A DNA stretch of 64,000 nt from positions 160,001 to 224,000 of the forward strand of contig JBMFRC010000004.1 of NCBI GenBank assembly GCA_049968235.1, written 5' to 3'. Below the pieces are notes generated by a model. The model did no database searches. It saw nothing but the letters and a program-made list of their open reading frames with translations, and was not told the DNA's origin. The position numbers and the translations under genes are program-made. This document shows positions 29,723 through 57,841 of the stretch, one piece after another. This stretch comes from Candidatus Hydrogenedens sp. Lineage in GTDB: Bacteria > Hydrogenedentota > Hydrogenedentia > Hydrogenedentales > Hydrogenedentaceae. The first letter of the stretch is position 1, and the number at the start of each line of letters is the position of its first letter.

Positions 29723-29734
29723 GAAAGAACAGAG

Positions 29735-30181
29735 ATGACATCCTTTAAAGAGAAACAGTCGCAGAATTTTTTATATTGGTCTCAACGACAACAAGCATGG
29801 CTAAAATCCCAAATAAAATCAGCAGAAAACCTGAAATTGTTGTTAGAAAAAAATAATTTAGATAATGAAATAGAAACGGAAATAAAAAAACATGGAAAAC
29901 AAAATGAGCAATTAAATACATTGATACAAGAATATGATATTTTAAGAAAAGAAATACCCTCTGATATTTTAAAGGAACAAAAGAATCAGGAAATTATTAA
30001 AGGAATAAAAGAACTTATTCAGACATTGATAAAAATTAATGATGAAATATATCAAATAGTGTTAAAACAAAAAGAAAATCTTCAAAAAGAAATGGGTGAC
30101 TTTTTCTCACTAAAAAGTCGGTTTGAAAAATACAATCCACAGGGGAAAAAGTTATCGGAAAATGTAGATTATGATGTCTAA
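29735..30181 (+). CDS. small coiled-coil protein, unknown (translationally coupled to the histidine kinase)
   Basis: 148 aa. Lys/Glu-rich, heptad-like. Its 3' end overlaps the downstream kinase start by 11 nt. Confidence 0.4.
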   Translation: MTSFKEKQSQNFLYWSQRQQAWLKSQIKSAENLKLLLEKNNLDNEIETEIKKHGKQNEQLNTLIQEYDILRKEIPSDILKEQKNQEIIKGIKELIQTLIKINDEIYQIVLKQKENLQKEMGDFFSLKSRFEKYNPQGKKLSENVDYDV

Positions 30182-31375: not shown

Positions 31376-32767
31376 ATGCCAAAAGCAAAAATTCTTGTAA
31401 TTGACGATGAGCCTCTCATGCGTGAATTTATCGAGGAAGCCATGACTCGTGCTGGCTATCGTGTGGTGAGTTCTGGAAGTGGCGCAGAAGGGGTAGAATT
31501 GATTAAAACACAACCCTTTGATTTGATAATAACGGACTTAAAAATGGAACCGGTTGATGGTATGGAGGTGTTACAAGAAAGTGTTAAGGTCTCCCCGGAG
31601 ATACCTGTTATCATAATGACTGCTTACGCAACAATAGAAACCGCCATCAGGACATTAAAAGCAGGTGCAGTAGATTATCTTGTAAAGCCTTTTACTCCGG
31701 AGGCTATTGAAATTGCAGTAAAACGGGCTCTGGACAAAGTCAAAATGAACGCAGAAAATAAGTACCTCCGTTCGGAACTGAATGCATATTTAGGTCCTCC
31801 TGAAATTATTGGAAAAAGTAAAATAATGCAAGAATTGCATGAGAAAATAAACAAGATTGCTGATTCTCGTTCCACCGTGCTTATTCGTGGAGAAACTGGA
31901 GTAGGAAAAGAGTTAGTGGCACGGACGATTCATGTCTTAAGTCCTCGAAGAGAAAAACCTTTTATAAAGGTAAATTGTGCCGCTCTTTCTTCAGGTATTC
32001 TTGAAAGTGAACTTTTCGGGCATGAACGAGGAGCCTTCACTGGTGCTTATGAGAAAAAGATTGGTCGTTTTGAACTTGCCAATGGTGGGTCCTTATTGCT
32101 GGATGAAATAAGTGAGATTCATGTAGACCTTCAGCCCAAACTCCTTCGTGCATTACAGGAACGAGAAATTGAAAGGGTGGGCGGAACAGAGACTATATCT
32201 GTAGATGTTCGTATTATTGCCACGTCCAATAGAAACCTTGAAGAAGCCATTGAGAAACATTCTTTCCGTCAGGATTTGTTTTACCGCTTAAATGTTATAA
32301 CGATTTATGTGCCACCCCTTCGCGAAAGGAAAGAAGACATTCCCGAATTGGCAAATTATTTCTTGAAACGGTTTTCTAAAGAAAATGGGAGAAATGTTGA
32401 TACCATTACCCCCAAGGCGATGGAATATTTTATGGAATATGACTGGCCTGGAAATGTTCGTGAATTGCAAAACATAATAGAACGCGCTGTGGTCCTTGCC
32501 GGTGATAAGAAAACTCTATGTATAAAGGATTTTGAGTTTCTTAAAATAAGGAGTCATAGTGAACATAATGTTTCGCAGATGCAGACAGGTATTACCTTGG
32601 CAGAAATGGAAAAAAATATCATTCTCAAGACATTAGAACATTGTGGAGGTAATAAAACGAAATCGGCTGAGGTTTTAGGCATTAGTGTGCGAACACTTAG
32701 AAATAAATTGCATGAATATGGATTGGTTAAACCGCAGAAAAATCGAATGGAACGCATTCCAAAATAG
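31376..32767 (+). CDS. sigma-54-dependent response regulator (NtrC/AtoC family enhancer-binding protein)
   Basis: 463 aa. REC. AAA+ sigma-54 interaction domain with Walker A GETGVGKE and the GAFTGA motif (ESELFGHERGAFTGA). C-terminal Fis-type HTH. Confidence 0.9.
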   Translation: MPKAKILVIDDEPLMREFIEEAMTRAGYRVVSSGSGAEGVELIKTQPFDLIITDLKMEPVDGMEVLQESVKVSPEIPVIIMTAYATIETAIRTLKAGAVDYLVKPFTPEAIEIAVKRALDKVKMNAENKYLRSELNAYLGPPEIIGKSKIMQELHEKINKIADSRSTVLIRGETGVGKELVARTIHVLSPRREKPFIKVNCAALSSGILESELFGHERGAFTGAYEKKIGRFELANGGSLLLDEISEIHVDLQPKLLRALQEREIERVGGTETISVDVRIIATSNRNLEEAIEKHSFRQDLFYRLNVITIYVPPLRERKEDIPELANYFLKRFSKENGRNVDTITPKAMEYFMEYDWPGNVRELQNIIERAVVLAGDKKTLCIKDFEFLKIRSHSEHNVSQMQTGITLAEMEKNIILKTLEHCGGNKTKSAEVLGISVRTLRNKLHEYGLVKPQKNRMERIPK

Positions 32768-32811
32768 AAATGGAATAAAAAATATCCTATCTTGAAATAT
32801 AATTATAAAGT

Positions 32812-34995
32812 ATGAAAAAAAAAGAGACTATATTTTTTCTTTTAATTATTCTTTTTGCGATTGTAATACGGGTTATATATTTCTACTATATCTCACAACA
32901 ACCTGAATTTTCACACCCAATTATAGATCCTCAATTTAACGATTACTGGGCACATAAAATATTGTATCAGGGTAATTATCCATCTCCAACGGGAGATGAC
33001 CCTATGATAGAAAATACACCTTATGGAAGACCGCCAGGTTATCCTTTTCTTCTAGCTTTTATATACTTTCTTTTCGGAGATAATTATAATTCTCCGCGGT
33101 TAATACAATTTTTTGTGGGAATTGTAAATGTTTTTTTTATGTATTATTTTGTTTCGAGAATTTTTGTGAGTAAAAAAGCAGGATTAGTTTCTGCATTTTT
33201 AATGGCTATCCTTTGGGAACCTATTTATTTTGAAGGGGAAATAAACTATCCTGTATGGGTAATCTCACTTACAATAGTTCTTTTATTTACCTCATTACGA
33301 TATCTGCAAATAAAAACAACAAAATTTGTGATTCTTTCGGGCTTTTTACTAGGAATTATCGCTCTCTTTAGACCCAATGGACTTTTATTGTTACCTATGT
33401 ATGTTGGAATTGTGTTTCATATATTTGGGAAACGGAACTTCAAGAAGGCTCTTGCTCATTGCATTCTCTTTTCTGTATCCGTATTCTTAATAATATCTCC
33501 TGTTTTTATTAGAAACTATATAGTCAGTAATGATTTTTTTTTGATTTCGTGTTTTGGGGGGATAAATACATACATAGGTAACAATGCCCAGTCAACGGGG
33601 GACAGTCCTACGGTCCCGAATATAATTCATTTGTGTGGAGTTGATAATTGGGATTGTTTTAATTATCGATTATTAGTAAAAGGTCTTGGGATAAAACAAG
33701 AGGGTCGTTACTATTCATTCAAGGAGGCTTCTCAGTTCTTTTATAAAAAGGTTTATGAGTATTGGAAAAAAGAACCTATCTCTGCAATCAAATTAACGGC
33801 TCGTAAATTCTTTTTATTTTGGGGTCCTGCTATAGTTTCTGATGGAAAAGTTATTTATCATGACAGGGAAGCAACATTTCTTCGTTTATTGCCCGGTTTT
33901 CCTTTTCTGGTGGGATTATCTTTTTACTTCTTAATTTTGTTTATTCGACAGAGAAATCAATTACCTCCGGAACTTAAAACGCTTCTATTATTTATTTTTA
34001 CATGGAGTTTTGTTTATTCGTTATCTGTTATTCCTTTTTTTGTTTCAGAACGATACCGAATCCCTATTATTCCACCTTTATGCATTATAGGGGGAATAGG
34101 TACCGTTTTATTTCTTAGTAATACTGGTAATCAAAATAAGTTAAACAAGTTTAAACAAATTATTATTTGTTTACTATGCCTTACCCTTGTTTATAAGACA
34201 CCTGTAAAATATGAACCGGATACACCTCGATGGTTTTACCATAAAGCCATTGTTTCCTATAAATCTCAAAATGAAAAAGATGCGGTTTACTATGCTAATA
34301 AAGCCATTTCAAAGAACCCCAATTATTCAGAAGTTTATGCCTTTCTTGGTATAATCTCTCTTAATCATCATGAGTTTAAAGAGGCAGAAAATTATTGTTT
34401 AAAAGCATTAGAAAAAAATCCTGATTATGCTATGGCAAATAATAATTTAGGTTATATTATGGAATTAGAAAAGAAATTTGACCTTGCAGAAAAGTATTAC
34501 TATAAAGCATGTGAATTAAGTCCTGTATATACCCTGGCATGGATAAACCTCGGGAGAATGTATTTGTATTATCATAACCAGATTAACTTAGCAAAAGATT
34601 GTTTCGTAAAAGTAACTGAGTTAGACCCCAACTCATGGGTTGGATGGTTTCACTTAGGGAATGTATATATACAAATGGGAGAATACTCCTCAGCGGAGAA
34701 ATTTCTAACAAAATCTCTTTCATTAAATCCGGAAAATGCCCTTATTCATAATAATTTTGGTTTTTTATATATACAGAGAAAACAGTATGAAAAAGCGATA
34801 GAGTTTTTAAAAACAGCATTAGAAAAAGAGCCACAATTTACAGATGCTATGTTTAATCTCGGGAATGCGTTTAAAGAAATGAAGCAATATGAAGAGGCAG
34901 AATATTGGTATAAAAAAGTTTTAGAAATTGACCCACAATTTACAGATGCAGTAGATAAAATCAATGAAATAAATACAAATAAAAAAACTAACTAA
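32812..34995 (+). CDS. membrane GT-C glycosyltransferase (PMT/ArnT/TMTC-like) fused to C-terminal TPR repeats, subfamily A
   Basis: 727 aa. About 12 TM helices in the N-terminal 440 aa, with an acidic first-loop motif (PQFNDYWAHK) and RPPGYPFLLA. C-terminal about 270 aa of canonical TPRs (AFLGIISLNHHEFKEAENYCLKALEKNPDY...). The architecture parallels eukaryotic TMTC O-mannosyltransferases. Confidence 0.65.
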   Translation: MKKKETIFFLLIILFAIVIRVIYFYYISQQPEFSHPIIDPQFNDYWAHKILYQGNYPSPTGDDPMIENTPYGRPPGYPFLLAFIYFLFGDNYNSPRLIQFFVGIVNVFFMYYFVSRIFVSKKAGLVSAFLMAILWEPIYFEGEINYPVWVISLTIVLLFTSLRYLQIKTTKFVILSGFLLGIIALFRPNGLLLLPMYVGIVFHIFGKRNFKKALAHCILFSVSVFLIISPVFIRNYIVSNDFFLISCFGGINTYIGNNAQSTGDSPTVPNIIHLCGVDNWDCFNYRLLVKGLGIKQEGRYYSFKEASQFFYKKVYEYWKKEPISAIKLTARKFFLFWGPAIVSDGKVIYHDREATFLRLLPGFPFLVGLSFYFLILFIRQRNQLPPELKTLLLFIFTWSFVYSLSVIPFFVSERYRIPIIPPLCIIGGIGTVLFLSNTGNQNKLNKFKQIIICLLCLTLVYKTPVKYEPDTPRWFYHKAIVSYKSQNEKDAVYYANKAISKNPNYSEVYAFLGIISLNHHEFKEAENYCLKALEKNPDYAMANNNLGYIMELEKKFDLAEKYYYKACELSPVYTLAWINLGRMYLYYHNQINLAKDCFVKVTELDPNSWVGWFHLGNVYIQMGEYSSAEKFLTKSLSLNPENALIHNNFGFLYIQRKQYEKAIEFLKTALEKEPQFTDAMFNLGNAFKEMKQYEEAEYWYKKVLEIDPQFTDAVDKINEINTNKKTN

Positions 34996-35008
34996 ATATT
35001 AAAAGAAT

Positions 35009-37654
35009 ATGGATAACGAAAATAAAAAAAATAAAGATTGGGTAATTCTCTCGTGGATACTTTTGTTTGCGTTCTGTTTTCGGATTATTTATCTCTGGCA
35101 ATTAGTAGATGCTCCAGACTTTATTGCACTTCGGCAGGACTTGGATGTTCAGGATTATCAGGCAAGAGCGATACTATCCGGAGATTGGACTGTTCGGGAA
35201 GGGGTTTCTGACCCACATATTCCAACGACGCCGTATTATCGACCTCCGGGTTACCCATACTTCCTTGCAGTTGTATATTATTTTTTTGACGGTTCCTATC
35301 TGGCACCGCGATTCATTCATTTTTTTCTTGGACTCGTGCATATTGTCCTAATATATTTTTTAGCCAGAATTATATTTAATAGAATCGCAGGTTTATGTGC
35401 ATCTTTTCTTGTAGCCACTTATTGGGCTTTTATTTATTATGAAGGAGAAGTAAACGACCCTGCTTTATTTGTTTTTCTTGTCCCCTGTATATTATTTCTG
35501 ATTTATTATGCTGTTACTAAGGACTTTATCTTGTATTCTTTTTTCTCAGGCTTATGTATTGGTATATATGCCATCATGAGACCTAATATTCTATCATTTA
35601 TTCCTTTTTTATCATTATGGATTTTGTTCTTTTTTTATAAGCAGAAAAAACTATTTAAGAGTTTCTTTCATATATTTTTTTTGATAATTGCAATTTTTAC
35701 TGTGATAACTCCGGTTACAGTTCGGAATTATCTCGTATCGGGTGAATTTGTGCCTATCTCTACTTATTTTGGGGAGAATCTATTGATAGGAAATAGTGAG
35801 GATGCTGATGGAGTAACGCCGTGGTTGCCTTACCTTCAGGAATTAGAAGGAACGGGTAATTGGTCTGTATGGCATTATGATAATGTTGTAAAGGGTTTAG
35901 GGAAATTTTTGGGGAGAGAAGTTTCACATTCCGAAGCATCAAATATTTTTGCTAAAATGGCTATAAATTATATTATTCATCACCCATGGCAAACATTTTT
36001 ACTCACATGCAAAAAAGCTATTTTATTCTGGAGTCCACAAGAAATTACAGAGAACAAAGTTGTAGAGGGGGAAAGACAACATTATATACCTCTGAAATAT
36101 ATGCCTCGATTTCCTATTGTCCTGAGTACATTTTTATTAGGTTTGTTTTTTTTGATAAAAAATATATTTTTCAATAAGACATTTAAAGATACAAATATAA
36201 ATATTTATTTTCTAACACTGGTATTGTTGTTTATATTTACATATTTTGCTTCATTTCTTCCCTTTTTTGTAAATGCAAGGGCTCGTGTTCCGATATTGGG
36301 ATTGATGTTCATCATCGGCGGATACACATTTTCAGAAATTCGGTATTTATTTGTTAAGAGAAGAATAACTCCCGCTCTCATAAGTATTTTTGTTTTAGTA
36401 ATACTTTTTCTCATAACTCATATTGATATTATTCCCTATAAACCGGATATGTGCCGTTGGCATTATGACCGTGCTGACTCTTATCTCCGTGTAGGTCGTG
36501 TTGATGAAGCATTACAGGAAGTACATGCTCTTATGTCTCGTCCGGAACGTCCTATGACTTACATGCCATTCCGGCTGGGACATGCACTTGCAAAGTTAAA
36601 TTATTCCGAATTAGCTATAGATTTATTACGACTGGCACTTAGTCCTGACCCTTCAGAACAGCCTTCTATGTATAGAGAAGATATTTACTATCATATCGGT
36701 GCTTTATTTATGAAATTAAAAAGATATGATGAAGCCATCAAAGAATTTGAAAATGCTTTATCTTTAAATCCCAAAGACCCGAGAGTTCATAATGACCTAG
36801 GTGTCATTTACAAAGAACGCAATGACTTAGTAAAAGCCGAACAAGAATATAAATATGCTATTGATACAGAACCAGAATTTAATCTTGCTATAGCAAACTT
36901 GACAGAATTGTATATTCAACAGAAAAAATACGCTGAAGCGATTGAATTGCTGGGAAATAGCCTAAAATTACAGCCTCAAAATACAGAGTTACTTTATAAT
37001 TTAGGATTTGTTTATCATAATTCGGGACAACTTGAAAAAGCACTTTCCTATTACCAACAAGTATTATCTCATGATAGTAAGGAACCTAATACACTTAATA
37101 ATATGGCTATGATTTATTTAGAAAAAAATGACCTGGAAAAAGCCAAAAATACCCTGTTATGGTGTATATGCAAGAATTCCTATTTTACACTCGCATATGC
37201 GAATATGGGGGACATTTTATATTCAGAAAACCAACTACCAAAAGCCCTATATTATTATGATAAAGGGCTTGAAACGAATTATGAACATATAGGACTTTGC
37301 GCTGCGTTAGCCTTACTTTATACAGAAATGGGTAATGCCGAGAAAGGGATTGTGGAATTAATGGATGTTTTAAAAAAACATCCAGAGTCCACCAATTTAT
37401 GGTTTGCTCTGGGAAATATCTATAAAAATAGTAATCAAAATAATGAGGCTATTGGTGCTTATAATAAAGTATTAGATATAGATAGTTCTTATACATCGGC
37501 GTATAGAAATTTGATGGAAATTTATTTAAATAAAGGAGATGTTAATAAAACACTGGAAATCTTTGAAAAAGCGAAACAAAACATTAAAGATTCTGAACAA
37601 ATAGAATATTTATCCTCTCTTATCCTGGAAAAACAAGGAAATACCAATAAATGA
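35009..37654 (+). CDS. membrane GT-C glycosyltransferase (PMT/ArnT/TMTC-like) fused to C-terminal TPR repeats, subfamily A paralog
   Basis: 881 aa. Paralogous to the upstream gene (VQDYQARAIL...YYRPPGYPYFLAVVYYFF). Multiple TM helices. C-terminal about 400 aa of TPRs. Stop overlaps the downstream GT2 start (ATGA at 37651-37654). Confidence 0.65.
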   Translation: MDNENKKNKDWVILSWILLFAFCFRIIYLWQLVDAPDFIALRQDLDVQDYQARAILSGDWTVREGVSDPHIPTTPYYRPPGYPYFLAVVYYFFDGSYLAPRFIHFFLGLVHIVLIYFLARIIFNRIAGLCASFLVATYWAFIYYEGEVNDPALFVFLVPCILFLIYYAVTKDFILYSFFSGLCIGIYAIMRPNILSFIPFLSLWILFFFYKQKKLFKSFFHIFFLIIAIFTVITPVTVRNYLVSGEFVPISTYFGENLLIGNSEDADGVTPWLPYLQELEGTGNWSVWHYDNVVKGLGKFLGREVSHSEASNIFAKMAINYIIHHPWQTFLLTCKKAILFWSPQEITENKVVEGERQHYIPLKYMPRFPIVLSTFLLGLFFLIKNIFFNKTFKDTNINIYFLTLVLLFIFTYFASFLPFFVNARARVPILGLMFIIGGYTFSEIRYLFVKRRITPALISIFVLVILFLITHIDIIPYKPDMCRWHYDRADSYLRVGRVDEALQEVHALMSRPERPMTYMPFRLGHALAKLNYSELAIDLLRLALSPDPSEQPSMYREDIYYHIGALFMKLKRYDEAIKEFENALSLNPKDPRVHNDLGVIYKERNDLVKAEQEYKYAIDTEPEFNLAIANLTELYIQQKKYAEAIELLGNSLKLQPQNTELLYNLGFVYHNSGQLEKALSYYQQVLSHDSKEPNTLNNMAMIYLEKNDLEKAKNTLLWCICKNSYFTLAYANMGDILYSENQLPKALYYYDKGLETNYEHIGLCAALALLYTEMGNAEKGIVELMDVLKKHPESTNLWFALGNIYKNSNQNNEAIGAYNKVLDIDSSYTSAYRNLMEIYLNKGDVNKTLEIFEKAKQNIKDSEQIEYLSSLILEKQGNTNK

Positions 37655-38802
37655 CACATTGTGATGAAATAGAACTAAGCGTTGTATTACCTTGTTTGAA
37701 TGAAGAACGGACTATTGGACAATGTGTACAGAAAACACAAAAGGTTTTCGATAAATATCATATTAAAGGTGAAATTATTGTCGCAGATAATAATTCTACG
37801 GATAGTTCCTCATCAATTGCGGAACAAGCAGGTGCGAAGGTAGTCAAGGTAATTACTCCTGGATACGGGAATACTCTTCGAAACGGTATAAAAGAAGCAA
37901 AAGGGAAATATATAATCTTTTTTGATTCTGATTTATCCTATGACCCTGAGGATATTCCTCAAATATTAGAGAAATTACGAGAAGGTTATCCTATTGTTCT
38001 GGGGTCTAGGAAAAAAGGAACGATTGATAGAGGCTCTATGCCATGGTTACATAGATATATAGGCACTCCGATAATGACTTTACTTGCGAATATTTTTTTT
38101 AAGGCACATATAACGGATATTAATTCGGGTATGCGTGGTATGTCCCGAAAAGTATTTGATGAATTAGATTTACATTCGGAAGGCATGGAATTTGCTTCTG
38201 AAATGATAGCAAAAGCACATTGGACCCAAACTAAAATAGCGGAAGTTCCTATTCATTTTCACTGTGACCAGAGGGGAAGGCGTCCACATTTACATTCTGT
38301 TCGTGATGGATGGAGACATTTACAACTTATGTTTCATTATTGTTCTATTAATTGGTTTCTTATACCGGGTTTTATATTGTTATTTTTTTCATACCTTGTA
38401 TTTTTTATTCTGCCTCAGTATATGGATATTTATACATCCTTTTTTATTTCTTTACTAACCAACATTATTGCAACCCAAATTTTATTGATTGGAGTCATTG
38501 CTCAGGGTAGAGTTCGTGGTTCAAAGTTTAGATACATTCCATCAAAATATCTCCTTTTTTTATCCCGAATAATCAAAGTCGAAAAGGGTATGTTTTTGGG
38601 TTTAGGGATATGTTTTTTAGGCATGTTTTTAATGCTTTATACTCTTCGTTCAGGAATAAACATGCCAGATATAACTATAAAAATATTTTTTGGGGGTATT
38701 CTATGTTTTGTTCAGGGGGTTCAGGTTTTATTTAGTTCCATTTTAATCGGGCTGTTTGGAATTCGTGTTTCAGAAGAGGAAGAATTTTTTAGAAAATCTT
38801 AG
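37651..38802 (+). CDS. GT2 polyprenyl-phosphate glycosyltransferase (DPM1/ArnC/GtrB-like) with C-terminal TM helices
   Basis: 383 aa. GT-A N-terminus (LSVVLPCLNEERTI, DSD...YDPED). Four C-terminal hydrophobic helices. This is the architecture of lipid-phosphate-sugar donor synthases that feed GT-C enzymes. Confidence 0.8.
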   Translation: MTHCDEIELSVVLPCLNEERTIGQCVQKTQKVFDKYHIKGEIIVADNNSTDSSSSIAEQAGAKVVKVITPGYGNTLRNGIKEAKGKYIIFFDSDLSYDPEDIPQILEKLREGYPIVLGSRKKGTIDRGSMPWLHRYIGTPIMTLLANIFFKAHITDINSGMRGMSRKVFDELDLHSEGMEFASEMIAKAHWTQTKIAEVPIHFHCDQRGRRPHLHSVRDGWRHLQLMFHYCSINWFLIPGFILLFFSYLVFFILPQYMDIYTSFFISLLTNIIATQILLIGVIAQGRVRGSKFRYIPSKYLLFLSRIIKVEKGMFLGLGICFLGMFLMLYTLRSGINMPDITIKIFFGGILCFVQGVQVLFSSILIGLFGIRVSEEEEFFRKS

Positions 38803-38817
38803 AGTTATAATAAAGAT

Positions 38818-40281
38818 ATGAAACATGTTGTATTTGTAATGCCACCATATCCTTATTCTCGTTCCATTGGACAGGAGGAAGGAAAAAGGCAAATTGGGTT
38901 AATGCCGCCTTTAGGTGTTGGGTATCTTACTGCATACTTAGAGCGGACAGGGAAATACCAATGTTATTTTGTCGATGCAGTTGCGGAGAGGTTATCTATT
39001 GAGGAAACTGTTTCTCGTATTCTATCATTCGAACCGGATGTAATTGGAATTTCATCTTTTACGACTTTTCTTCTCAATACTTCATATCAACTTGCACGAA
39101 GATTAAAAGAAGAATGTCCTTCGATTCCATTGTTAATGGGAGGTCCTCACACTACTTCTTTCGGGGAACAGGTGTTGAAAGACTGTCCGTATATTGATTA
39201 TGTCATTCCGGGAGATGCTGAAGTTCCTCTTTTAGAGTTATTAGAAAAGATTTTTTGTGGAGATATACCGGATAAGGTAAAAGGCATCATTTATAAAAAT
39301 GAAAAAGATGAAATCGTAGATACGGGCTGTTCTATCCCTGTAGATGATATTGATACTCTACCTTTCCCCTCACGACACATTTATAACCATGAGTTATATG
39401 AGCCTTTACCGAGTTTAAGTCCCAAACGCCCTGCCATGTCGATGATTACAGCACGGGGTTGTCCATGGGCACGATGTAAATTTTGTTATCAGGGAGGGAA
39501 ATATGCATCTCCATTTCGTCGTCGGTCTCCGGAAAATGTTGTGGCAGAATTAAAATACCTTATTGAAAAATATAATGTAAAAAATATTGTATTCTGGGAT
39601 GATAATTTTTGTATCTTTCCTGAATGGATACATAAATTTTGCTCCCTTATAAAACAGGGGAAAATAAAATTAGATTGGTCTGTTTTATCGCGTGTAAATA
39701 CAGTAACACCGGAAATGTTAAATGAAATGGCAGAAGTAGGTTGTTACAGTATTCAATTTGGTATTGAATCCGGAAATGAGGAAATACTTAAACTTATTCG
39801 AAAAGGTCACACATTAGAACAATGTCGAAATGCAGTCCGCTGGGCAAAATCCGCTGGTATGGAGACAAGGGCTTTCTTTGTTTTGGGTTTTCCTACGGAG
39901 ACCCCAGCAATGAGTGAAGAGACTATTCGTTTTGCATGTGAATTAAATATCGATTATGTTGTTTTCTTTTCGTATTATGTAGCACCCGGAACACTTCTTG
40001 CCGAGATTGCTATGAGAGAAGGGCAGTGTTTTGAATTTATAGGACAACATTTACCTTCTTACCTTCCTAATACCTATCCTGATTTGGAGACATTAACAAA
40101 GAAAGTACAATCCGCCTATCGAAGATATTACCTCAGACCTCGATATTTCGCTCGAACTATTACAAGAACGATTCGTCGTCCCCATCATTTGAAAAATCAA
40201 ATAAAGGCATTTAATTATTGGCTTGGATTGAGTTTAAAAAAATGGACTCACAACAAAAATTCAACAGTTAACATAACCTAA
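38818..40281 (+). CDS. B12-binding domain radical SAM protein (class B rSAM)
   Basis: 487 aa. N-terminal cobalamin-binding Rossmann region (DVIGISSFTTF...LLMGGPHTT). Radical SAM Cys cluster (RGCPWARCKFCYQG), then the TIM-barrel core. Confidence 0.8.
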   Translation: MKHVVFVMPPYPYSRSIGQEEGKRQIGLMPPLGVGYLTAYLERTGKYQCYFVDAVAERLSIEETVSRILSFEPDVIGISSFTTFLLNTSYQLARRLKEECPSIPLLMGGPHTTSFGEQVLKDCPYIDYVIPGDAEVPLLELLEKIFCGDIPDKVKGIIYKNEKDEIVDTGCSIPVDDIDTLPFPSRHIYNHELYEPLPSLSPKRPAMSMITARGCPWARCKFCYQGGKYASPFRRRSPENVVAELKYLIEKYNVKNIVFWDDNFCIFPEWIHKFCSLIKQGKIKLDWSVLSRVNTVTPEMLNEMAEVGCYSIQFGIESGNEEILKLIRKGHTLEQCRNAVRWAKSAGMETRAFFVLGFPTETPAMSEETIRFACELNIDYVVFFSYYVAPGTLLAEIAMREGQCFEFIGQHLPSYLPNTYPDLETLTKKVQSAYRRYYLRPRYFARTITRTIRRPHHLKNQIKAFNYWLGLSLKKWTHNKNSTVNIT

Positions 40282-40297
40282 AAATAAAGGATAAACT

Positions 40298-41767
40298 ATG
40301 AGAACAAATATGTTCTTTTATTACTTCATAACAGGATTTCTATTCTCAATAATCTTTCAACAAATAGGAATAACCGAAGAAATATATAATATAGGAAACC
40401 GACGAGAAATTTTTATTGATAATAAATTAATTGATAAATTAGAGAATATATCATTTAAGTTATGTGAGCCTATTCCTGCTGAGAAGGTTTTATATTTTGA
40501 TAAACCGTGGGAGGGTAAACACAGTGGATATGTGACCTTAATCCATGACCAAGACATTTATCGCCTCTATTACAGAGGACTTCCTGTTTCAAAAGCCGAT
40601 GGCTCAAATGCAGAAGTTACCTGTTATGCAGAAAGCACAGATGGTATTCATTTCATTAAACCATCTTTGGGACTCTTTGAAATAGCAGGTTCAAAAGACA
40701 ATAATGTAATTCTTGCTAATGATCCACCTTTTTCACATAATTTTGCTCCTTTTATAGACGAAAAGCCCAACATTCCCAAGGAAGAACGATATAAAGCAGT
40801 GGCAGGGACTTTTGATAGTGGTTTATATACCTTCGTTTCCCCAGATGGAATCCGATGGCGGAAATTATCAGAGAAACCTATACTTAAAGGGGCATCATGG
40901 AAAGATTTTGCCTTTGATTCTCAAAATGTAGCTTTTTGGTCTATTTTAGAACAAAAGTATATTTTGTATTTTCGCACCTGGAATGGTCCCAATCAAGAAT
41001 ATCGTTGGGTAAGTCGAACAACCAGTTCAGATTTTTTAAATTGGGAAAAACCTGTAGTAATGGATAAAGGAAATGCACCATGGGAACATATATATACCAA
41101 TCAGACAATCCCTTATTTTAATGCTCCACACCTATATGTTTCAATATCAGCCCGATTTGTCCCTGGATGTAAAGTATTATTACAAGAAGAAATAAAATCC
41201 ATAGGGGTTGATATAGATTACAGTCATGATTGTTCCGATGTAATATTCATGAGTAGTCGAGGGGATAATATATATAGCCGATTTTTTTTAAATGCTTTCT
41301 TAAAACCTGAATATCCTTTAGAAAACTGGGTATCCAGAACCAATTATCCTGTGCGAGGCATTGTTCCTGCAGGTGATTATCAAATGGCTTTTTATATTCA
41401 AAAAAATTATGCACAGGACACTGCATATATTCAGCGATATTTACTTCGTCTGGATGGTTTTTCCTGTCTTTCCGCAGGATATGCAGAAGGTATTATTACC
41501 ACTGTGCCGTTAATTTTCAAAGGGGATAATCTGTTTCTTAACTTTGTTACCTCTGCTATAGGTTATATAAATGTAGAAGTTCAGGATATAAATGGAAATT
41601 CCATATCGGGATATGAGTTTAGTAATTCCATACCGTTGAAAGGAAATCGGATTAATTTCAAAGTATCATGGAATGATACTAATAATTTATCTTCATTGCA
41701 GGGAGCACCTATTCGATTATCTTTTAAGATGAAAGATGCAGATTTATATGCAATCCAATTTAAGTAA
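40298..41767 (+). CDS. secreted hypothetical protein (possible beta-propeller glycan-active enzyme)
   Basis: 489 aa. N-terminal hydrophobic signal/anchor. No motif I can assign with confidence. Occupies the operon between the rSAM and an esterase. Confidence 0.35.
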   Translation: MRTNMFFYYFITGFLFSIIFQQIGITEEIYNIGNRREIFIDNKLIDKLENISFKLCEPIPAEKVLYFDKPWEGKHSGYVTLIHDQDIYRLYYRGLPVSKADGSNAEVTCYAESTDGIHFIKPSLGLFEIAGSKDNNVILANDPPFSHNFAPFIDEKPNIPKEERYKAVAGTFDSGLYTFVSPDGIRWRKLSEKPILKGASWKDFAFDSQNVAFWSILEQKYILYFRTWNGPNQEYRWVSRTTSSDFLNWEKPVVMDKGNAPWEHIYTNQTIPYFNAPHLYVSISARFVPGCKVLLQEEIKSIGVDIDYSHDCSDVIFMSSRGDNIYSRFFLNAFLKPEYPLENWVSRTNYPVRGIVPAGDYQMAFYIQKNYAQDTAYIQRYLLRLDGFSCLSAGYAEGIITTVPLIFKGDNLFLNFVTSAIGYINVEVQDINGNSISGYEFSNSIPLKGNRINFKVSWNDTNNLSSLQGAPIRLSFKMKDADLYAIQFK

Positions 41768-41783
41768 TTAAGGAGGTATAACT

Positions 41784-42857
41784 ATGCTTTATAAAGCATT
41801 AACATTACTTCTTGTTTTTTTCTTAAACCAACAAAACATTTTAGAAAAACCTCCTTTTTATAAGGATAAGAATAATTTGCTTTATTACATTGGAAATGGA
41901 GGAGAAATTCATGAGATAACGAGTTTAAAAGAATGGGATATAAGGAAAAATCATATACTTCAAAATATGCTTCTTGTAATGGGTCCATTGCCAGACCGTT
42001 CCCATTTACCTCCTCTGGATGTGAAAGTTGAATCTACAGAGGATATGGGGTCATATTGGCGAAAGAAAATTACATTTAATGCTGAAAAAAATGATAGATT
42101 ACCTGCTTATTTGTTGGTACCTAAAAATGTTAATGGTAAAAGACCTGCTATTGTATGTTTACATCAAACTATAGATATTGGGAAAGCCGGTCCTGTGGGT
42201 ATCGGTGATTCTAAGAATCGACATCTGGCAAAAGAACTTGCTGAAAGAGGATATATTGTTATTGTCCCGGATTATCCGGGCTTTGGCGATTATAAGATTG
42301 ATGTATATTCAATGGGATATGCAAGTGCCACTGCGAAAGGTATTGGGAATCACCGTCGTTGCATTGACCTGCTACAAACAATGATTGAAGTGGATAAAGA
42401 TAAAATTGGCGCTATTGGACATTCTTTAGGTGGACACAACACTCTTTTTTTAGGGGCATTTGATAAACGGATTAAAGTAATGGTTACCAGTTGCGGTTTT
42501 ACCAGTATGAGAAAATATTATAATGGTGACTTAACAGGGTGGTCTCATAAAGGTTATATGCCAAGAATAAAAGAACAATATCAATGCAATCCGGACTTAC
42601 TCCCTTTTGATTTTACGGAAGTTCTCGGGATATTAGCTCCCCGCCCCGTATTTATTAACGCCCCCATACATGACAATAATTTTGAAGTAACAGGTGTAGA
42701 TGATTGCGTTAATTCTGCGCAAAGGATTTATACCCTTTATAAGGCAGAAGAAAACTTAAAAGGAATTCATCCGGATTGTGGACATGATTTCCCCCCTGAA
42801 ATCCGAGAAGAAGCCTATCGTTTTTTAGATAAACATTTAGGCTGGAACCCTAAATAG
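41784..42857 (+). CDS. alpha/beta-hydrolase (dienelactone hydrolase / acetyl-esterase-like) with signal peptide
   Basis: 357 aa. Nucleophile elbow GHSLGGHN. Catalytic His near the C-terminus (HPDCGHDFP). Confidence 0.7.
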   Translation: MLYKALTLLLVFFLNQQNILEKPPFYKDKNNLLYYIGNGGEIHEITSLKEWDIRKNHILQNMLLVMGPLPDRSHLPPLDVKVESTEDMGSYWRKKITFNAEKNDRLPAYLLVPKNVNGKRPAIVCLHQTIDIGKAGPVGIGDSKNRHLAKELAERGYIVIVPDYPGFGDYKIDVYSMGYASATAKGIGNHRRCIDLLQTMIEVDKDKIGAIGHSLGGHNTLFLGAFDKRIKVMVTSCGFTSMRKYYNGDLTGWSHKGYMPRIKEQYQCNPDLLPFDFTEVLGILAPRPVFINAPIHDNNFEVTGVDDCVNSAQRIYTLYKAEENLKGIHPDCGHDFPPEIREEAYRFLDKHLGWNPK

Positions 42858-42858: not shown

Positions 42859-45072
42859 TTATCTGCCTTCACTTCCTAATTTTGCTGTTAAATATTCCTC
42901 AAAAAAAGACTCAATAAAAATTCCTTTATCTTTCAATTCATAATATTCCCGCAATGCTTTTTTATAATTCTTTTCTATGAAAATGGAATCAAGAAGATTT
43001 TTCCATGACCGGTATTGCCCATTTTCACATTGTATAGCGGAATAGAACCAATTTTTTGCTTCTTCCTCATTACCTTGAGATAGTGAAATAACACCTAAGG
43101 CAATTCGTGGAAGAGCAATATCAGGATTTATATGGATAATAAAGCGAAGTTTTTCTTGTGTGGTTTTCATATCGCCGTTTATCGATGTCATTATAGCATC
43201 AAAACATAGGTATGCCAATTTCAAATCTTTATCTAACAGAATCGCTTTTTGAAGGAAATATTCTTTATATCCCGGATTTATGTTTCTCTGACTTATCTGA
43301 TAATATCTCAGGGATTTTGTAAGTGTGGTGATATTTCCCCCACTTTTGAGAGTATTATATAAATTCTGAAATTGCAATTTTTGTAATGGGTCATTATTAA
43401 TCAATTTCTCAATTAGATACATTGCACACTCTTTGTGATTGGTTTCGACATTGGCAAGGGCAAAATCAGATATTGTAAATTTAAGGGAATCATTTTCAAA
43501 TTCTTTGCCTGCCTGATGAGAATATCCACCTCCTTGTTGGAATAGTACTTTATATAATCGGATAGGTTCTATACCGTATAAATCATAAGTTTCATATTGA
43601 ATTTGGTTGTTACTTAACAAACATTCCAATTCAGGGGAACCAAAATCGCCGAAATAAAAGGAGATATAAACAAACCATATTTTATCCGACAAACAACTTG
43701 ATTTTCTTTGAAATAGTTCATGAATAATTGGAATGAACGTGCTTATATCTTCAACAAAGGACACCGGTATTTTTTCATTTTTAAGATTAAATGTAAAGAC
43801 ATCTTTATTGATTGCTTGATACACAAATACAGGGGAGTTCTCTTTATCTGAATTTTGTTTTTCTATAAAATGAACTGTATCTTGCCAATTTGTTCTTTGG
43901 GGTCCCGGAAGAGTAATGATTAATTGATAACACAATATTAATATCAAGAAGATTAATAGTAAATAACCAATAATTTTGTGCTTATTTATTTTTATTAAAC
44001 TACCATAAAGCAAATATATTGCAAGGCTACAATATAAGGTATATCTTGGGAATATACATGGTCTCCATATAATAGACAGGACATATAATAATAACGGGGG
44101 GATTAAGATTATTAACAATAAAAGAACTATTCCATACCTTAATTTTAATTCACTTTCATTATCAACATGCCTAAAAACAAACCTAAAACTTAAAATCATC
44201 ACTATTGTAGTTATAACCAATAGAGAAGCATCAAATATAGAATGTATATTTATAAAATATTTGGGGATAACTTCTTCTATAACTCTTACCTGATATGTCA
44301 TTTTTACTGCGTCATCAGCAAATAAATCTCCAAGAAATTCAAATAGTGTCGGTATTTTAAACCAGGAAGACTGTTCCGATGAATAATAATGTATACTTGA
44401 TATATACACGATTGAGGGAATACTAATTAATATTTGAGATGCAATAAAGTAGTATTTCTTATAATCGCTTGTATAAAAAACATAAAATATCCATACTATT
44501 TCGATTATAAGGATAATTACAGCAAAAGGATGTGTCCATAATAAAAGGATGTTTATTAATGTTAAAGTAATCCAATTTTTTCTATTACGATTCTCAGAAT
44601 ATAAAAGCAAAAAATATATGGACAGAGTAAACAAAAGTGTTAATAAAACATACATTCGTATTCCCTGTCCAAAAAAACGATGAATCGGAGATATAGCGAA
44701 AAAAAATCCCGCCAACAAGCCCATCTTTTCTGAATTGAATCTTCGACCTATAAGGAATAGAACAGGGATAGTCATTACACTTAACAGAATGGATAGTAAA
44801 CGCAGACCTATAACAGAGGGGGAAACATAATGCCAGAAAAGGTATTCGAGTATATAATAAACAGGCATAGTGGCAGGGTCATAAAGAGGATTTAAGAAAA
44901 GGAATTCCTTTAATGATTCAGCATTAATATGCACTAAACTGGAATACTCATCCCACCAGACCGATTCATCTGAAATGTTATATATACGAATAACAAAAGC
45001 CAATAGGACAATAAGTGAACAATAAACTAACACGTGTATTTTATGTTTTTTTTGTCCTTTTATTTTTTCCAC
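42859..45072 (-). CDS. membrane GT-C glycosyltransferase (PMT/ArnT-like, DE-motif) with C-terminal TPR-like domain, subfamily B
   Basis: 737 aa. First-loop WWDEYSS (the DE motif of the PMT/ArnT/GT39-83 superfamily). About 11 TM helices. C-terminal soluble helical-repeat (TPR-like) region. Convergent with the esterase, with zero intergenic spacing. Confidence 0.7.
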   Translation of the reverse strand: MEKIKGQKKHKIHVLVYCSLIVLLAFVIRIYNISDESVWWDEYSSLVHINAESLKEFLFLNPLYDPATMPVYYILEYLFWHYVSPSVIGLRLLSILLSVMTIPVLFLIGRRFNSEKMGLLAGFFFAISPIHRFFGQGIRMYVLLTLLFTLSIYFLLLYSENRNRKNWITLTLINILLLWTHPFAVIILIIEIVWIFYVFYTSDYKKYYFIASQILISIPSIVYISSIHYYSSEQSSWFKIPTLFEFLGDLFADDAVKMTYQVRVIEEVIPKYFINIHSIFDASLLVITTIVMILSFRFVFRHVDNESELKLRYGIVLLLLIILIPPLLLYVLSIIWRPCIFPRYTLYCSLAIYLLYGSLIKINKHKIIGYLLLIFLILILCYQLIITLPGPQRTNWQDTVHFIEKQNSDKENSPVFVYQAINKDVFTFNLKNEKIPVSFVEDISTFIPIIHELFQRKSSCLSDKIWFVYISFYFGDFGSPELECLLSNNQIQYETYDLYGIEPIRLYKVLFQQGGGYSHQAGKEFENDSLKFTISDFALANVETNHKECAMYLIEKLINNDPLQKLQFQNLYNTLKSGGNITTLTKSLRYYQISQRNINPGYKEYFLQKAILLDKDLKLAYLCFDAIMTSINGDMKTTQEKLRFIIHINPDIALPRIALGVISLSQGNEEEAKNWFYSAIQCENGQYRSWKNLLDSIFIEKNYKKALREYYELKDKGIFIESFFEEYLTAKLGSEGR
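44741..45040. repeat. direct repeat copy A (5' end of the GT-C gene 42859-45072); near-identical to 52618-52900
   Basis: A run of roughly 110 bp appears identical in both copies (gacctataacagagggggaaacataatgccagaaaaggtattcgagtatataataaacaggcatagtggcagggtcataaagaggatttaagaaaaggaattcctttaatga). The flanks are roughly 85-90% similar. Copy B carries a short deletion in the 3' flank. Confidence 0.7.
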
Positions 45073-45329
45073 AAGAAAGCCTTAAATCACAAGTTATAAG
45101 ATAGAATTACATACTTACAGTTTAGCAATTGGGTGTTCGTGAATTCCATAGCCCCTTTGTAGCACGATGAATAAATATAAATGTTCAATATCAACAGGAA
45201 ATAAGACATTTATAAAAGTATATAGCAATAAGAAATAAGATAAAGCAGATAATATTAGAAAGCAAGAAGGAGAAATATATACTTGCGATTAAGTATCACC
45301 TAAATGCGAATACTATTCTGCAAAAACGA

Positions 45330-57811: not shown

Positions 57812-57841
57812 GAATAATCAATCCTTTGAATTGAAAACAAT

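Follow-up and report, generated by a model that had tools for sequence, protein, structure and literature searches.

A block of ten co-directional genes in a MAG of an uncultured Candidatus Hydrogenedens bacterium was found to combine glycosyltransferases of two kinds with a B12-type radical SAM enzyme. Relatives of this enzyme lie beside membrane transferases in many phyla of bacteria and archaea, and cell-surface glycosylation may thus include a radical step not described so far. The block is tentatively read as a regulated envelope-glycosylation module in which a polyprenyl-phosphate (Pren-P) sugar synthase, a radical sugar modifier and GT-C/TPR transferases act together. This reading was given somewhat less than an even chance (about 0.45).

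Extent and conservation of the block

The window analysed was a DNA stretch of 64,000 nucleotides. Six plus-strand genes had been described in the first-pass annotation; their coordinates were all confirmed in the ORF list, and their domain assignments were borne out by domain profile searches. These genes form the distal part of a larger block (27188-42857), which continues upstream on the same strand with gaps of 12, -11, 32 and 44 nt and comprises:

27188..29722, +, TPR-rich protein of 844 aa (TPR_19, TPR_2 and YfiO/BamD-like matches)
29735..30181, +, conserved 148-aa protein without functional assignment (sub-threshold FliT match only)
30171..31343, +, soluble PAS histidine kinase (PAS, HisKA, HATPase_c)
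31376..32767, +, sigma-54-dependent NtrC-type response regulator (Response_reg, Sigma54_activat, HTH_8)
32812..34995, +, GT-C (PMT_2) membrane glycosyltransferase with C-terminal TPR, paralogue 1 (PMT_2 44.2 bits, cutoff 26.1)
35009..37654, +, GT-C (PMT_2) membrane glycosyltransferase with C-terminal TPR, paralogue 2 (PMT_2 42.9 bits, cutoff 26.1)
37651..38802, +, predicted GT2 polyprenyl-phosphate sugar synthase, DPMS/ArnC/GtrB type (Glycos_transf_2 99.6 bits)
38818..40281, +, radical SAM enzyme with B12-binding domain, CX4CX2C clade (B12-binding 68.1 bits, Radical_SAM 91.8 bits)
40298..41767, +, five-bladed beta-propeller with C-terminal beta-sandwich, CAZyme-like, probably exported, accessory (no Pfam match)
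41784..42857, +, alpha/beta serine hydrolase, CE15-like carbohydrate esterase candidate, probably exported, accessory

Spacings of 13, -4, 15, 16 and 16 nt were found between the six distal genes; the 4-nt overlap claimed before was thus recovered, and the claimed gap range of 13-26 nt was slightly loose. No terminator-like site was found in any of these gaps, including the 15-nt gap between the GT2 and radical SAM genes, and the genes are presumably co-transcribed. In a genome scan, the full block order was also present in five other MAG contigs (L010, L011, L012, L013 and L015), with a radical SAM identity of 72-87% in L011, L012, L013 and L015 and of 92% in L010. Two further contigs (L003, L014) differed only in the last two genes. 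Since the full order is kept in five contigs and nearly so in two more, it is more than chance packing. The TPR-rich 844-aa protein and the 148-aa protein, whose gene overlaps the kinase start by 11 nt, were both kept at the same position in L003, L010, L011, L013 and L015.

Expression of the block is probably controlled by the upstream sigma-54 regulator and PAS kinase; no hydrophobic segment was found in the latter. Kinase and regulator pairs also follow radical SAM gene pairs, formed by this enzyme and a second one described below, in other Hydrogenedentota loci (L034, L041). A search of the intergenic regions gave no match to the sigma-54 promoter consensus.

The two GT-C paralogues are 31% identical; paralogue 1 is multi-TM in its N-terminal half, and paralogue 2 is likewise multi-TM. 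The best NCBIfam matches of the GT2 protein were AglJ, PpgS (Pren-P-GalNAc synthase, ranked second) and Dol-P-hexose transferase, all below cutoff, and its best PDB matches were 5mlz (P. furiosus Dol-P-Man synthase), ArnC and GtrB. Because these solved relatives are all polyprenyl-phosphate glycosyltransferases, the protein is predicted to be a DPMS/ArnC/GtrB-type synthase. A DxD motif (DSD, residues 92-94) and four C-terminal TM segments likewise support the lipid-linked donor synthase proposed at first pass.

The CX4CX2C radical SAM clade and its neighbours

The cluster motif of the radical SAM enzyme was located as C215-PWAR-C220-KF-C223 (positions 39460-39486). Cobalamin binding is predicted solely from the Pfam domain match. 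No curated family was matched: HpnJ, the best-scoring one in NCBIfam, reached 185 bits (cutoff 578), and BchE reached 181 bits (cutoff 481). The enzyme is not BchE, HpnJ, HpnP or HpnR, so that clustering with BchE- or HpnP-type families, which the first-pass annotation had named as evidence against its proposal, cannot be held against it. The motif was invariant across the clade, whereas HpnJ, BchE and every other paralogue examined lacked it, and HpnJ fell outside the clade in an NJ tree without support values. The clade is uncharacterised and its CX4CX2C motif non-canonical.

The motif aligned residue for residue with that of OxsB, in which CX4CX2C replaces the usual CX3CX2C (PMC9204698), and it has been reported for the sugar C-methylase GenD1, which acts on a gentamicin intermediate (PMC4340712). 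The top structural match was AprD4 (PDB 6fd2, 18% identity). OxsB acts on a deoxyadenosine phosphate, whose sugar ring it contracts; AprD4 is not known to use cobalamin. At 18-20% identity, the similarities in motif and fold are weak and leave the substrate unfixed, and the substrates of class-B radical SAM enzymes vary greatly.

The link of the enzyme to glycosylation genes was found to hold well beyond the source genome. Surveyed were 53 loci of the clade, each flanked on either side by 2 kb or more; lineages of the clade include Hydrogenedentota, Patescibacteria, Woesearchaeota, Elusimicrobia, Deltaproteobacteria and Coriobacteriia. A strict GT-C (PMT_2) gene directly adjoined the radical SAM gene in 17 loci (on the same strand in 14), and within 5 kb GT-C was present in 31, GT2 in 21 and either in 35 of the 53. 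Nine of ten sampled adjoining genes matched Pfam PMT_2, eight of them above cutoff. Of the 11 loci with a radical SAM score of at least 600 bits, 9 had a GT2 gene directly preceding the radical SAM gene on the same strand. In Patescibacteria/DPANN loci, the gene was located inside runs of GT2, AsnB-like amidotransferase, methyltransferase, radical SAM, GT-C and GT4 genes, and in L043 radical SAM and GT-C genes alternate.

Mere proximity within a large, plastic island for surface polysaccharide, with the radical SAM enzyme belonging to some unrelated pathway, is very unlikely. The mosaic make-up of the 27-64 kb region would suit this explanation, as would the third or so of the surveyed loci with neither GT-C nor GT2 within 5 kb. 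However, GT-C/GT2 adjacency is found again and again in phyla of both bacteria and archaea, where the genes frequently share a strand and overlap or almost abut, and the outer flanks had a much lower density of strict GT-C genes (7 in 521 kb); both observations count against mere neighbourhood.

Modification of a lipid instead of the sugar is also unlikely. The enzyme would then act on the polyprenyl carrier or on a membrane lipid serving as GT-C acceptor, and the reaction would be, for example, methylation or C-C coupling as by HpnP/HpnR or archaeal tetraether enzymes. GT-C enzymes such as ArnT do accept lipids, and flippase-like LPG_synthase_TM genes recur near the radical SAM loci. Sub-threshold matches were obtained to HpnJ, HpnR and the lipid family TIGR04072, and several class-B radical SAM enzymes modify lipids (review PMC13459092). 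The lipid-family scores, however, were all far below cutoff, and the conserved neighbourhoods are devoid of lipid-biosynthesis genes and hold GT2, GT4, amidotransferase and methyltransferase genes instead, as is typical of glycan clusters. Both the motif and the closest fold lead to enzymes whose substrates are sugars and nucleosides.

A protein or peptide substrate, as for MgmA, Mmp10 and RiPP C-methyltransferases, with later glycosylation of the same protein by the TPR-bearing GT-C enzymes, was considered scarcely likely. NCBIfam matches to ApyD and RiPP C-methyltransferases reached 150-156 bits, TPR domains mostly bind proteins, and the block encodes a conserved small protein (29735-30181). 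This protein, however, is conserved only in the Hydrogenedens clade, no precursor-peptide-like gene was found beside the radical SAM gene in distant lineages, and the immediate partners are GT2 and GT-C, not RiPP proteases or transporters.

Terminal pair and genes 3' of the block

The 40298-41767 protein had been described as secreted and of unknown fold. The fold proved to be a known one, a five-bladed beta-propeller as in CAZymes with a beta-sandwich; no Pfam family matched, and the GH130-like NCBIfam score was 23.8 bits (cutoff 450). The esterase matched GCE_fung (41.3 bits, cutoff 27) and Peptidase_S9 (42.8 bits), its PDB matches were CE15 glucuronoyl esterases (OtCE15A, MZ0003) and a MHETase, and its nucleophile motif is GHSLGG (Ser214).

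Both proteins had been placed in the operon and named as candidates for periplasmic glycan trimming or deacylation; they proved not to belong to the conserved core and are attached only in the Hydrogenedens-level clade. It is doubtful that they would perform integral pathway steps, i.e. periplasmic deacylation or trimming of the glycan or of the flipped lipid-linked sugar. Analogues would be ArnD, HpnK and the presumed Pren-P-GalNAc deacetylase of mycobacteria. Consistent with such steps are the PpgS match of GT2, the hydrophobic N-terminal segment with which both proteins begin, and their position after the radical SAM gene with 16-nt gaps, an order shared by five further MAG contigs (protein identity 63-93%). 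On the other hand, the pathway deacylases ArnD and HpnK have folds other than propeller and alpha/beta hydrolase, and each of the two families is very large, with more than 6,000 detected homologues, and strongly conserved, its members being more than 50% identical across phyla in unrelated contexts (esterase: more than 6,200, elsewhere without GT neighbours). Neither glycosylation neighbours nor each other were found beside more distant relatives in seven sampled contexts. The pair was absent from every radical SAM locus outside the Hydrogenedens clade; within it, L014 lacks the esterase, and L003 lacks the esterase and retains only a fragment of the propeller gene. The two look like ordinary secreted carbohydrate enzymes, recruited only in the Hydrogenedens lineage and accessory to the GT2/radical SAM/GT-C core.

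The following features were located 3' of the block:

42859..45072, -, convergent GT-C-like membrane protein of 737 aa (weak PMT_2 match, 21.2 bits)
48221..50470, -, further PMT_2 GT-C gene, divergent from the second B12 radical SAM gene (PMT_2 32.2 bits)
50774..52312, +, second B12-binding radical SAM enzyme, canonical CX3CX2C (B12-binding, Radical_SAM)
53452..59757, -, sugar-tailoring cluster (WbuX amidotransferase, HisF-like, HisH-like, carbamoyltransferase, small radical SAM, flippase-like LPG_synthase_TM)

The 737-aa protein scored 392 bits with a custom GT-C HMM, carries a WWDE motif after TM1 and is kept at the same position in L007 and L010-L013. Orthologues of the second radical SAM enzyme lie directly 3' of the CX4CX2C enzyme in L022, L025, L034, L041 and L050. 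The sugar-tailoring cluster (WbuX 218.6 bits, cutoff 203.2) is syntenic in L003, L007, L010-L013 and L031. The block itself contains no flippase gene; the closest candidate is the flippase-like gene at 58825-59757, 16 kb away. Signs of rearrangement in the 27-64 kb region are a 263-nt repeat and a split pseudogene.

Proposed mechanism and comparison with known systems

The steps proposed for the envelope-glycosylation module were deduced from homology and genomic context. GT2 would transfer a sugar from a nucleotide donor to polyprenyl phosphate at the cytoplasmic membrane face. The lipid-linked sugar or its immediate precursor would undergo a radical reaction by the cytoplasmic B12-type enzyme, either C-methylation or skeletal rearrangement at an unactivated sugar carbon. 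Methylation-type chemistry is favoured for this putative reaction because a ring contracted to a carbocycle would be no ordinary glycosyl donor. Once flipped, the modified sugar would be passed on by the two GT-C paralogues to acceptors in the periplasm, which the TPR domains of these paralogues would select. The propeller protein and the CE15-like esterase would be exported and accessory.

No characterised counterpart was found in the literature searched, in line with the first-pass annotation. A precedent for a putative radical SAM enzyme with a proposed action on a lipid-linked sugar from a neighbouring glycosyltransferase is the hpnI-hpnJ-hpnK-LPG_synthase operon (HpnI-HpnJ-HpnK-HpnL, e.g. 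Mycetohabitans rhizoxinica pBRH01). As in the block, a membrane glycosyltransferase gene is directly followed by a radical SAM gene and HpnJ is grouped with B12-type models in NCBIfam; a hydrolase and an LPG_synthase_TM protein are near, as in the window. The role proposed for HpnJ is a ring contraction of BHT-glucosamine, by which this lipid-linked sugar is remodelled (PMC13459092). In contrast to the block enzyme (185 bits with the HpnJ family, cutoff 578), HpnJ has the canonical CX3CX2C motif and lies outside the clade. HpnI is GT21-type whereas the block GT2 is DPMS-like, and the hydrolase is YdjC-like (HpnK) instead of alpha/beta. The block is without squalene-hopene cyclase context, and hpn operons are without GT-C/TPR genes.

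OxsB (oxetanocin) and GenD1 (gentamicin) share the B12 domain, radical SAM domain and CX4CX2C motif with the block enzyme, whereas the 1,2-diol dehydratase AprD4 shows canonical motif spacing in the alignment. The 40298-41767 protein is only 10-16% identical to five-bladed beta-propeller CAZymes (GH130, GH137, GH43, GH32) and FpGalNAc deacetylase. The 41784-42857 protein resembles CE15 enzymes in its GCE_fung match, PDB matches and serine motif, but it is smaller than typical members, and scores are low (35-44 bits) and similar for Peptidase_S9, dienelactone hydrolase and MHETase. In architecture only, the genes at 32812-37654 resemble TPR-fused GT-C enzymes (eukaryotic TMTC1-4, bacterial PMT_2-TPR), in which a multi-TM PMT_2 region precedes a long TPR array.

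In three-component systems (ArnC/ArnD/ArnT, GtrA/GtrB/GtrX, PpgS/Rv3779, Dol-P-Man synthase/PMT), GT2 loads Pren-P and GT-C transfers the sugar outside the membrane. Deformylation of the lipid-linked sugar before transfer in the Arn pathway parallels the proposed radical SAM step. The block differs in lacking a GtrA- or ArnEF-type flippase gene and in the long TPR domains of its GT-C enzymes, and it adds a B12-type radical SAM tailoring enzyme, which none of these systems has.

Layout and transcription signals of the block

Six plus-strand open reading frames had been proposed as an operon by the first-pass annotation. They were recovered at the same coordinates, and the domain calls made for them were all borne out by Pfam and NCBIfam. 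The junctions between the six genes measured 13 nt, a 4-nt overlap, 15, 16 and 16 nt. The block exceeds the extent originally proposed and comprises ten co-directional genes at 27188-42857; the spacing among the upstream genes was 12, -11, 32 and 44 nt.

Genes of the block
from 27188, plus strand: four upstream genes, encoding a TPR protein, a protein of 148 aa, a soluble histidine kinase with a PAS domain and a response regulator of the sigma-54 type
32812-34995, plus strand: GT-C/TPR gene, PMT_2 44.2 bits (cutoff 26.1) and TPR array
35009-37654, plus strand: GT-C/TPR gene, PMT_2 42.9 bits (cutoff 26.1) and TPR array
37651-38802, plus strand: GT2 gene, Glycos_transf_2 (PF00535) 99.6 bits
38818-40281, plus strand: radical SAM gene, B12-binding (PF02310) 68.1 bits (cutoff 32.1), Radical_SAM (PF04055) 91.8 bits
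40298-41767, plus strand: 489-aa propeller gene, no family match
41784-42857, plus strand: esterase gene, alpha/beta hydrolase

Terminator-like sites were absent from every gap of the block in a scan of the window, which shows merely that no boundary was seen; the whole window yielded 6 sites, fewer than the 11.5 expected from shuffling. We infer that the block is co-transcribed. The sigma-54 promoter TGGCAC-N5-TTGC was searched for with up to two mismatches, and no convincing site was found in the intergenic regions 27022-27187 or 32768-32811. A sigma-54 activator is encoded within a block in which the -24/-12 consensus is missing from both of these regions. The DNA 5' of 27188 is AT-rich and contains a TGTATAAT-like element. 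An Rfam scan of the entire window returned zero matches, and therefore no cobalamin riboswitch is present in the window.

The radical SAM enzyme and the glycosyltransferases

The radical SAM enzyme was classified as soluble by hydrophobic-segment analysis. In its AF2 model, the N-terminal alpha/beta domain resembles the B12 domains of TsrM, CysS, TokK and MetH, and the enzyme is predicted to use cobalamin. The closest solved structure is AprD4, which has an identical domain layout; we know of no use of cobalamin by AprD4. Residues C215, C220 and C223 are invariant across the family alignment and form the cluster motif C215-PWAR-C220-KF-C223, that is, CX4CX2C instead of the usual CX3CX2C.

The distribution of this motif was surveyed in 79 loci recovered from a species-representative genome collection. 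All homologues with a score of 296 bits or more contained C[PSA][WY]xxCxFC. Homologues below 270 bits had the canonical spacing, the lone exception being a 123-bit paralogue in locus L088 (CYWGVCSFC). The canonical CX3CX2C was also present in all other B12-binding radical SAM paralogues, including the second one in the window, and in annotated HpnJ (CRSRCTFC) and annotated BchE (CPFTCRFC). Among database sequences, the variant occurred in all 120 close homologues and, of the best 149 representatives of 50%-identity clusters, in 28. The CX4CX2C sequences formed a single clade, separate from HpnJ and BchE, in a neighbour-joining tree calculated without support values. The same spacing is known in OxsB (PMC9204698), whose motif GCDYSRCTFC aligns residue for residue with that of the window enzyme, and the gentamicin C-methylase GenD1 is likewise reported to have it (PMC4340712).

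The best curated families for the enzyme were HpnJ (TIGR03471, 185.4 bits, cutoff 577.6) and BchE (TIGR02026, 181 bits, cutoff 481.35). In NCBIfam, HpnR scored 68.7 bits against a cutoff of 650, HpnP was missing from the matches, and no cutoff was reached by any of 30 relatives, that of HpnJ included. Clustering with BchE or HpnP, which the first-pass annotation had regarded as contrary to its proposal, was thus not observed. An identity as HpnJ was rejected on score, motif and gene context. BchE was rejected on score, its canonical motif, its position outside the clade and the lack of photosynthesis genes nearby. Hopanoid genes were absent among the ORFs annotated in the window from 15.5 kb onward.

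Within the CX4CX2C clade, a Rosetta-stone search detected no fusion of the radical SAM enzyme to GT2 or GT-C domains. Those cluster representatives that were long proved to be multi-copy radical SAM proteins with the canonical motif. Giants of 1,500-2,600 aa (P0242, P0243, P0244, P0260, P0264 and others) each combined as many as seven matched stretches with as many as four B12-binding radical SAM cores of the canonical motif.

In the PDB, the closest relative of the GT2 protein was the Pyrococcus Dol-P-Man synthase 5mlz (63 bits, residues 6-288), followed by ArnC and GtrB; all three are polyprenyl-phosphate glycosyltransferases. The DxD motif is D92-S-D94 (DSD, residues 92-94), and the C-terminus contains four hydrophobic segments (residues 231-374); the orthologue in contig L007 gave a weak GT2_TM_C match. 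The top NCBIfam matches (AglJ, PpgS and a Dol-P-hexose transferase) stayed under cutoff, and the protein lies outside the curated equivalogs that would identify its sugar (AglJ, 132 bits vs 325; PpgS, 82 vs 370; ArnC, 53 vs 529). On the basis of the PDB relatives, the NCBIfam matches, the DSD motif and the C-terminal hydrophobic segments, a role as donor synthase is well supported.

The two GT-C/TPR proteins are paralogues with a full-length identity of 31%. Their N-terminal halves are multi-TM, with about 9-12 hydrophobic segments, and a PDB sequence search with the membrane domain gave no match. In a poor alignment, 'DE' was found after TM1 in the GT-C proteins encoded at 42859 and 48221 and in 9 of 10 GT-C proteins adjacent to the radical SAM enzyme in other phyla; in the two TPR-fused proteins, the same poor alignment placed D-x4-DY in the first extracytoplasmic loop instead.

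Conservation of the neighbourhood and the surrounding island

ORFs were called in all fetched loci of relatives (L numbers) and labelled by phmmer against the window proteins and by iterated GT2 and GT-C HMMs. Strict GT-C calls required 100 bits or more and five or more hydrophobic segments; the looser GT-C HMM picked up a TPR-only protein as well. The Hydrogenedens-level clade was defined by a radical SAM score of at least 800 bits. The window comes from a Candidatus Hydrogenedens MAG, and its enzyme is 92% identical to its counterpart in Ca. Hydrogenedens terephthalaticus (L010). The order TPR protein, small protein, histidine kinase, response regulator, GT-C, GT-C, GT2, radical SAM was found in all contigs reaching upstream (L003, L010, L011, L013, L015). 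The propeller and esterase genes followed in five distinct contigs (L007/L015, L010, L011, L012, L013); L014 is without the esterase gene, and in L003 the propeller gene is reduced to a 147-aa remnant and the esterase gene is missing. In the tier of 600-800 bits, a same-strand GT2 gene was located directly upstream of the radical SAM gene in three of five loci with full flanks (L004, L018, L031), and also in L016, whose contig stops just downstream of the radical SAM gene. This tier is without propeller and esterase.

In deeper tiers, a PMT_2 GT-C gene was the recurrent neighbour. Neighbours were counted with the strict GT-C call in 53 CX4CX2C loci with 2 kb or more of flank on each side. A GT-C gene was directly adjacent (at most 150 nt away or overlapping) in 17 of these, on the same strand in 14. 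Within 5 kb, GT-C genes were present in 31 loci, GT2 genes in 21 and either type in 35. The outer flanks (5-10 kb off) contained 7 GT-C genes in a total of 521 kb. Mere co-location of the genes is one alternative to the pathway model proposed below. Pfam PMT_2 matched 9 of 10 sampled adjacent genes, 8 of them above cutoff. The lineages with such neighbours include Patescibacteria, Woesearchaeota, Elusimicrobia, Deltaproteobacteria and Coriobacteriia. The radical SAM gene was located inside glycan clusters in five Patescibacteria/Saccharibacteria loci (L053, L057, L059, L065, L069) and one of Woesearchaeota (L052), so that it belongs to such clusters in both ultra-small bacteria and DPANN archaea. 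Most of these six loci contained co-directional genes for a GT2, an AsnB-like amidotransferase, one or two class-I methyltransferases, the radical SAM enzyme, a GT-C and a GT4; in some, members were absent or on the opposite strand. Among the papers searched, none tied radical SAM enzymes to GT-C enzymes or polyprenyl-phosphate sugars.

Several further arrangements were recorded. In the Hydrogenedentota loci L034 and L041, the radical SAM gene is followed by a second type of B12-binding radical SAM gene, a histidine kinase and a sigma-54 regulator. Three B12-binding radical SAM and three GT-C genes alternate in L043:34-14208 (Hydrogenedentota), and five or six tandem B12-binding radical SAM genes are present in L042:9995-21113 (Deltaproteobacteria MAG), which suggests that such pairs have expanded extensively by paralogy. 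Contigs labelled 'uncultured Nitrospirales' (L007/L015, L014 and other 'binchicken' MAGs) are syntenic with the Hydrogenedens loci at 73-79% identity, and the taxonomic labels of these records look unreliable. In a cultured host, Solidesulfovibrio carbinolicus DSM 3852, plasmid pDCAR1 (L095, 62971-76218) contains a related cluster in the order GT2, canonical-motif B12-binding radical SAM, 501-aa hypothetical protein, small hypothetical protein, sialate O-acetylesterase, methyltransferase-like protein. This similar layout offers a possible model for experiments.

The 489-aa protein, initially described as having an unknown fold, is a five-bladed beta-propeller according to its AF2 model (pLDDT 91.7, 34 homologues as input) and a fold search, as in the propeller CAZymes of GH130, GH43, GH137 and GH32. 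By sequence it fell into no defined GH family. The propeller is accompanied by an N-terminal hydrophobic helix (residues 2-22) and a C-terminal beta-sandwich. No Pfam match and no PDB sequence match were obtained, and the NCBIfam beta-1,2-mannobiose phosphorylase model gave 23.8 bits (cutoff 450). The family (P0001-P0120) is unusually well conserved, with at least 6,609 matches and about 75 invariant positions, and homologues more than 50% identical were found in Bacteroidota, Calditrichota, Acidobacteriota and Planctomycetota. In five sampled genomes the homologue was a singleton in unrelated contexts, with no conserved neighbours. The 357-aa esterase matched the CE15 model GCE_fung (PF22244, 41.3 bits, cutoff 27) and contains GHSLGG with Ser214; it matched CE15 structures weakly, and Peptidase_S9, dienelactone hydrolase and MHETase equally weakly. 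Its family (P0390-P0509) has at least 6,293 matches, and homologues more than 55% identical in Armatimonadota, Gemmatimonadota and Planctomycetota; elsewhere, homologues were unlinked to the propeller or to glycosyltransferases. A GFO_IDH_MocA oxidoreductase gene abuts the esterase homologue in L097, is located ~4 kb from it in L096, and abuts the propeller homologue in L091.

The preferred reading of the two proteins is that they are exported enzymes active on carbohydrates, which were recruited to the block in one lineage. Trimming or deacylation of the operon's own product by them is possible: about half a dozen contigs retain the arrangement and the top structural match of the propeller in the fold search is a deacetylase, but wider conservation gives this role no backing. 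Separately, their two families are flagged here as very large and highly conserved, with members that are probably exported and have no assigned function.

The block is the plus-strand arm of a ~35 kb envelope-glycan island, since glycan genes lie downstream of it and the genes upstream of 27 kb are housekeeping genes.

Further features of the island
42859-45072, minus strand: GT-C-like membrane protein
45937-48261, minus strand: GT-C-like membrane protein (774 aa), matched by our own GT-C HMM alone (110 bits)
48221-50470, minus strand: GT-C-like membrane protein (PMT_2)
50774-52312, plus strand: second B12-binding radical SAM protein
53452-60978, mainly minus strand, DegT aminotransferase on plus strand: sugar cluster with WbuX, HisF-like, HisH-like, NodU-like carbamoyltransferase, 328-aa radical SAM and LPG_synthase_TM proteins
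downstream of the block: TPR protein

The WbuX N-acetyl-sugar amidotransferase scored above cutoff (218.6 bits), and the cluster at 53452-60978 suggests a pathway to an acetamidino and carbamoylated sugar. The segment from WbuX onward is syntenic in relatives; in L031, the sugar cluster (WbuX etc.) directly follows the GT2-radical SAM pair. No flippase gene was found within the block. The flippase-like LPG_synthase_TM gene is located at 58825-59757 (Pfam 75.3 bits; TIGR00374 30.9 vs cutoff 43.2). A GH29 alpha-L-fucosidase with an F5/8 type C domain (24646-26091, minus strand) is encoded just upstream of the island, and a tyrosine recombinase of the phage-integrase family at 15558-16463 (minus strand).

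A direct repeat of 263 nt (92% identical, spacing 7,856 nt) is present at 44789-45051 and 52645-52907. Its second copy is a duplicate of the 5' end of GT-C gene 42859-45072, and a 34-nt repeat lies beside each copy. A third B12-binding radical SAM gene is a split pseudogene, with residues 3-176 at 52878-53398 (minus strand) and residues 462-479 at 45125-45178 (minus strand). The former part shares 71% identity with the intact L011 gene and has an in-frame stop and a frameshift. The two parts are ~7.7 kb apart, and the genes for the 774-aa membrane protein, the PMT_2 protein and the second B12-binding radical SAM protein lie between them. The region 45.2-52.9 kb looks like an insertion, because the intact third gene is located between the GT-C gene and WbuX in L011-L013; possibly it is an artefact of MAG assembly. 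A transposase remnant, suggested by eye at 45377-45667, had no Pfam support, and this label was dropped.

Proposed pathway and comparison with known systems

Lipid-linked sugar donors are made by GT2 and used by GT-C enzymes. In the best-supported model, which is proposed here, a polyprenyl-phosphate sugar would be made by the GT2 protein, altered at an unactivated carbon by the CX4CX2C radical SAM enzyme, and passed to periplasmic acceptors by the GT-C/TPR enzymes; the adjacent PAS kinase and sigma-54 regulator would probably control the whole system. The identities and folds of the proteins, the motif, the packing and the cross-phylum linkage are established by the analysis, and the substrate, chemistry and acceptor are what we infer; the probability of the model was estimated at roughly 45%. 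Alternatively, the radical SAM enzyme may act on a lipid or on a protein. For the sugar-modifying pathway, C-methylation is favoured over ring contraction because contraction to a carbocycle would deprive the sugar of its normal role as glycosyl donor.

More tentatively, the CX4CX2C clade may be a previously unrecognised, dedicated partner of GT-C enzymes in Bacteria (Hydrogenedentota, Patescibacteria, Elusimicrobia and others) and DPANN archaea, performing radical C-H functionalisation (C-methylation or ring rearrangement) of polyprenyl-phosphate-linked sugars. The tailoring known to us at the stage of the lipid-linked donor is hydrolytic (ArnD). If true, a radical, probably cobalamin-dependent step would be a new class of chemistry for envelope glycosylation and a new kind of tailoring at this stage, leading to sugars undescribed in these uncultured lineages. 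A function would be assigned to a radical SAM clade outside all curated families, and unusual sugars, C-methylated or rearranged, would be predicted on the cell surfaces of Hydrogenedentota, CPR bacteria and DPANN archaea, groups with envelopes that are, to our knowledge, almost unstudied. The CX4CX2C motif together with GT-C adjacency provides a simple rule to find such systems. Related GT2-radical SAM clusters occur in cultured hosts (Solidesulfovibrio carbinolicus, canonical motif), and an experimental test is therefore feasible.

The ArnC/ArnD/ArnT, Gtr and PpgS/Rv3779 systems are nearest in logic; we know of no radical enzyme in any of them. By gene content, the nearest known system is the hpnI-hpnJ-hpnK-LPG_synthase operon. 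HpnJ, a putative radical SAM enzyme that NCBIfam places among its B12-type models, has been proposed to remodel a lipid-linked amino sugar supplied by the neighbouring glycosyltransferase (PMC13459092). Membership of the window system in the hpn system fails on score, motif, glycosyltransferase type and context, the GT2 protein of the window being DPMS-like whereas HpnI belongs to Glyco_transf_21.
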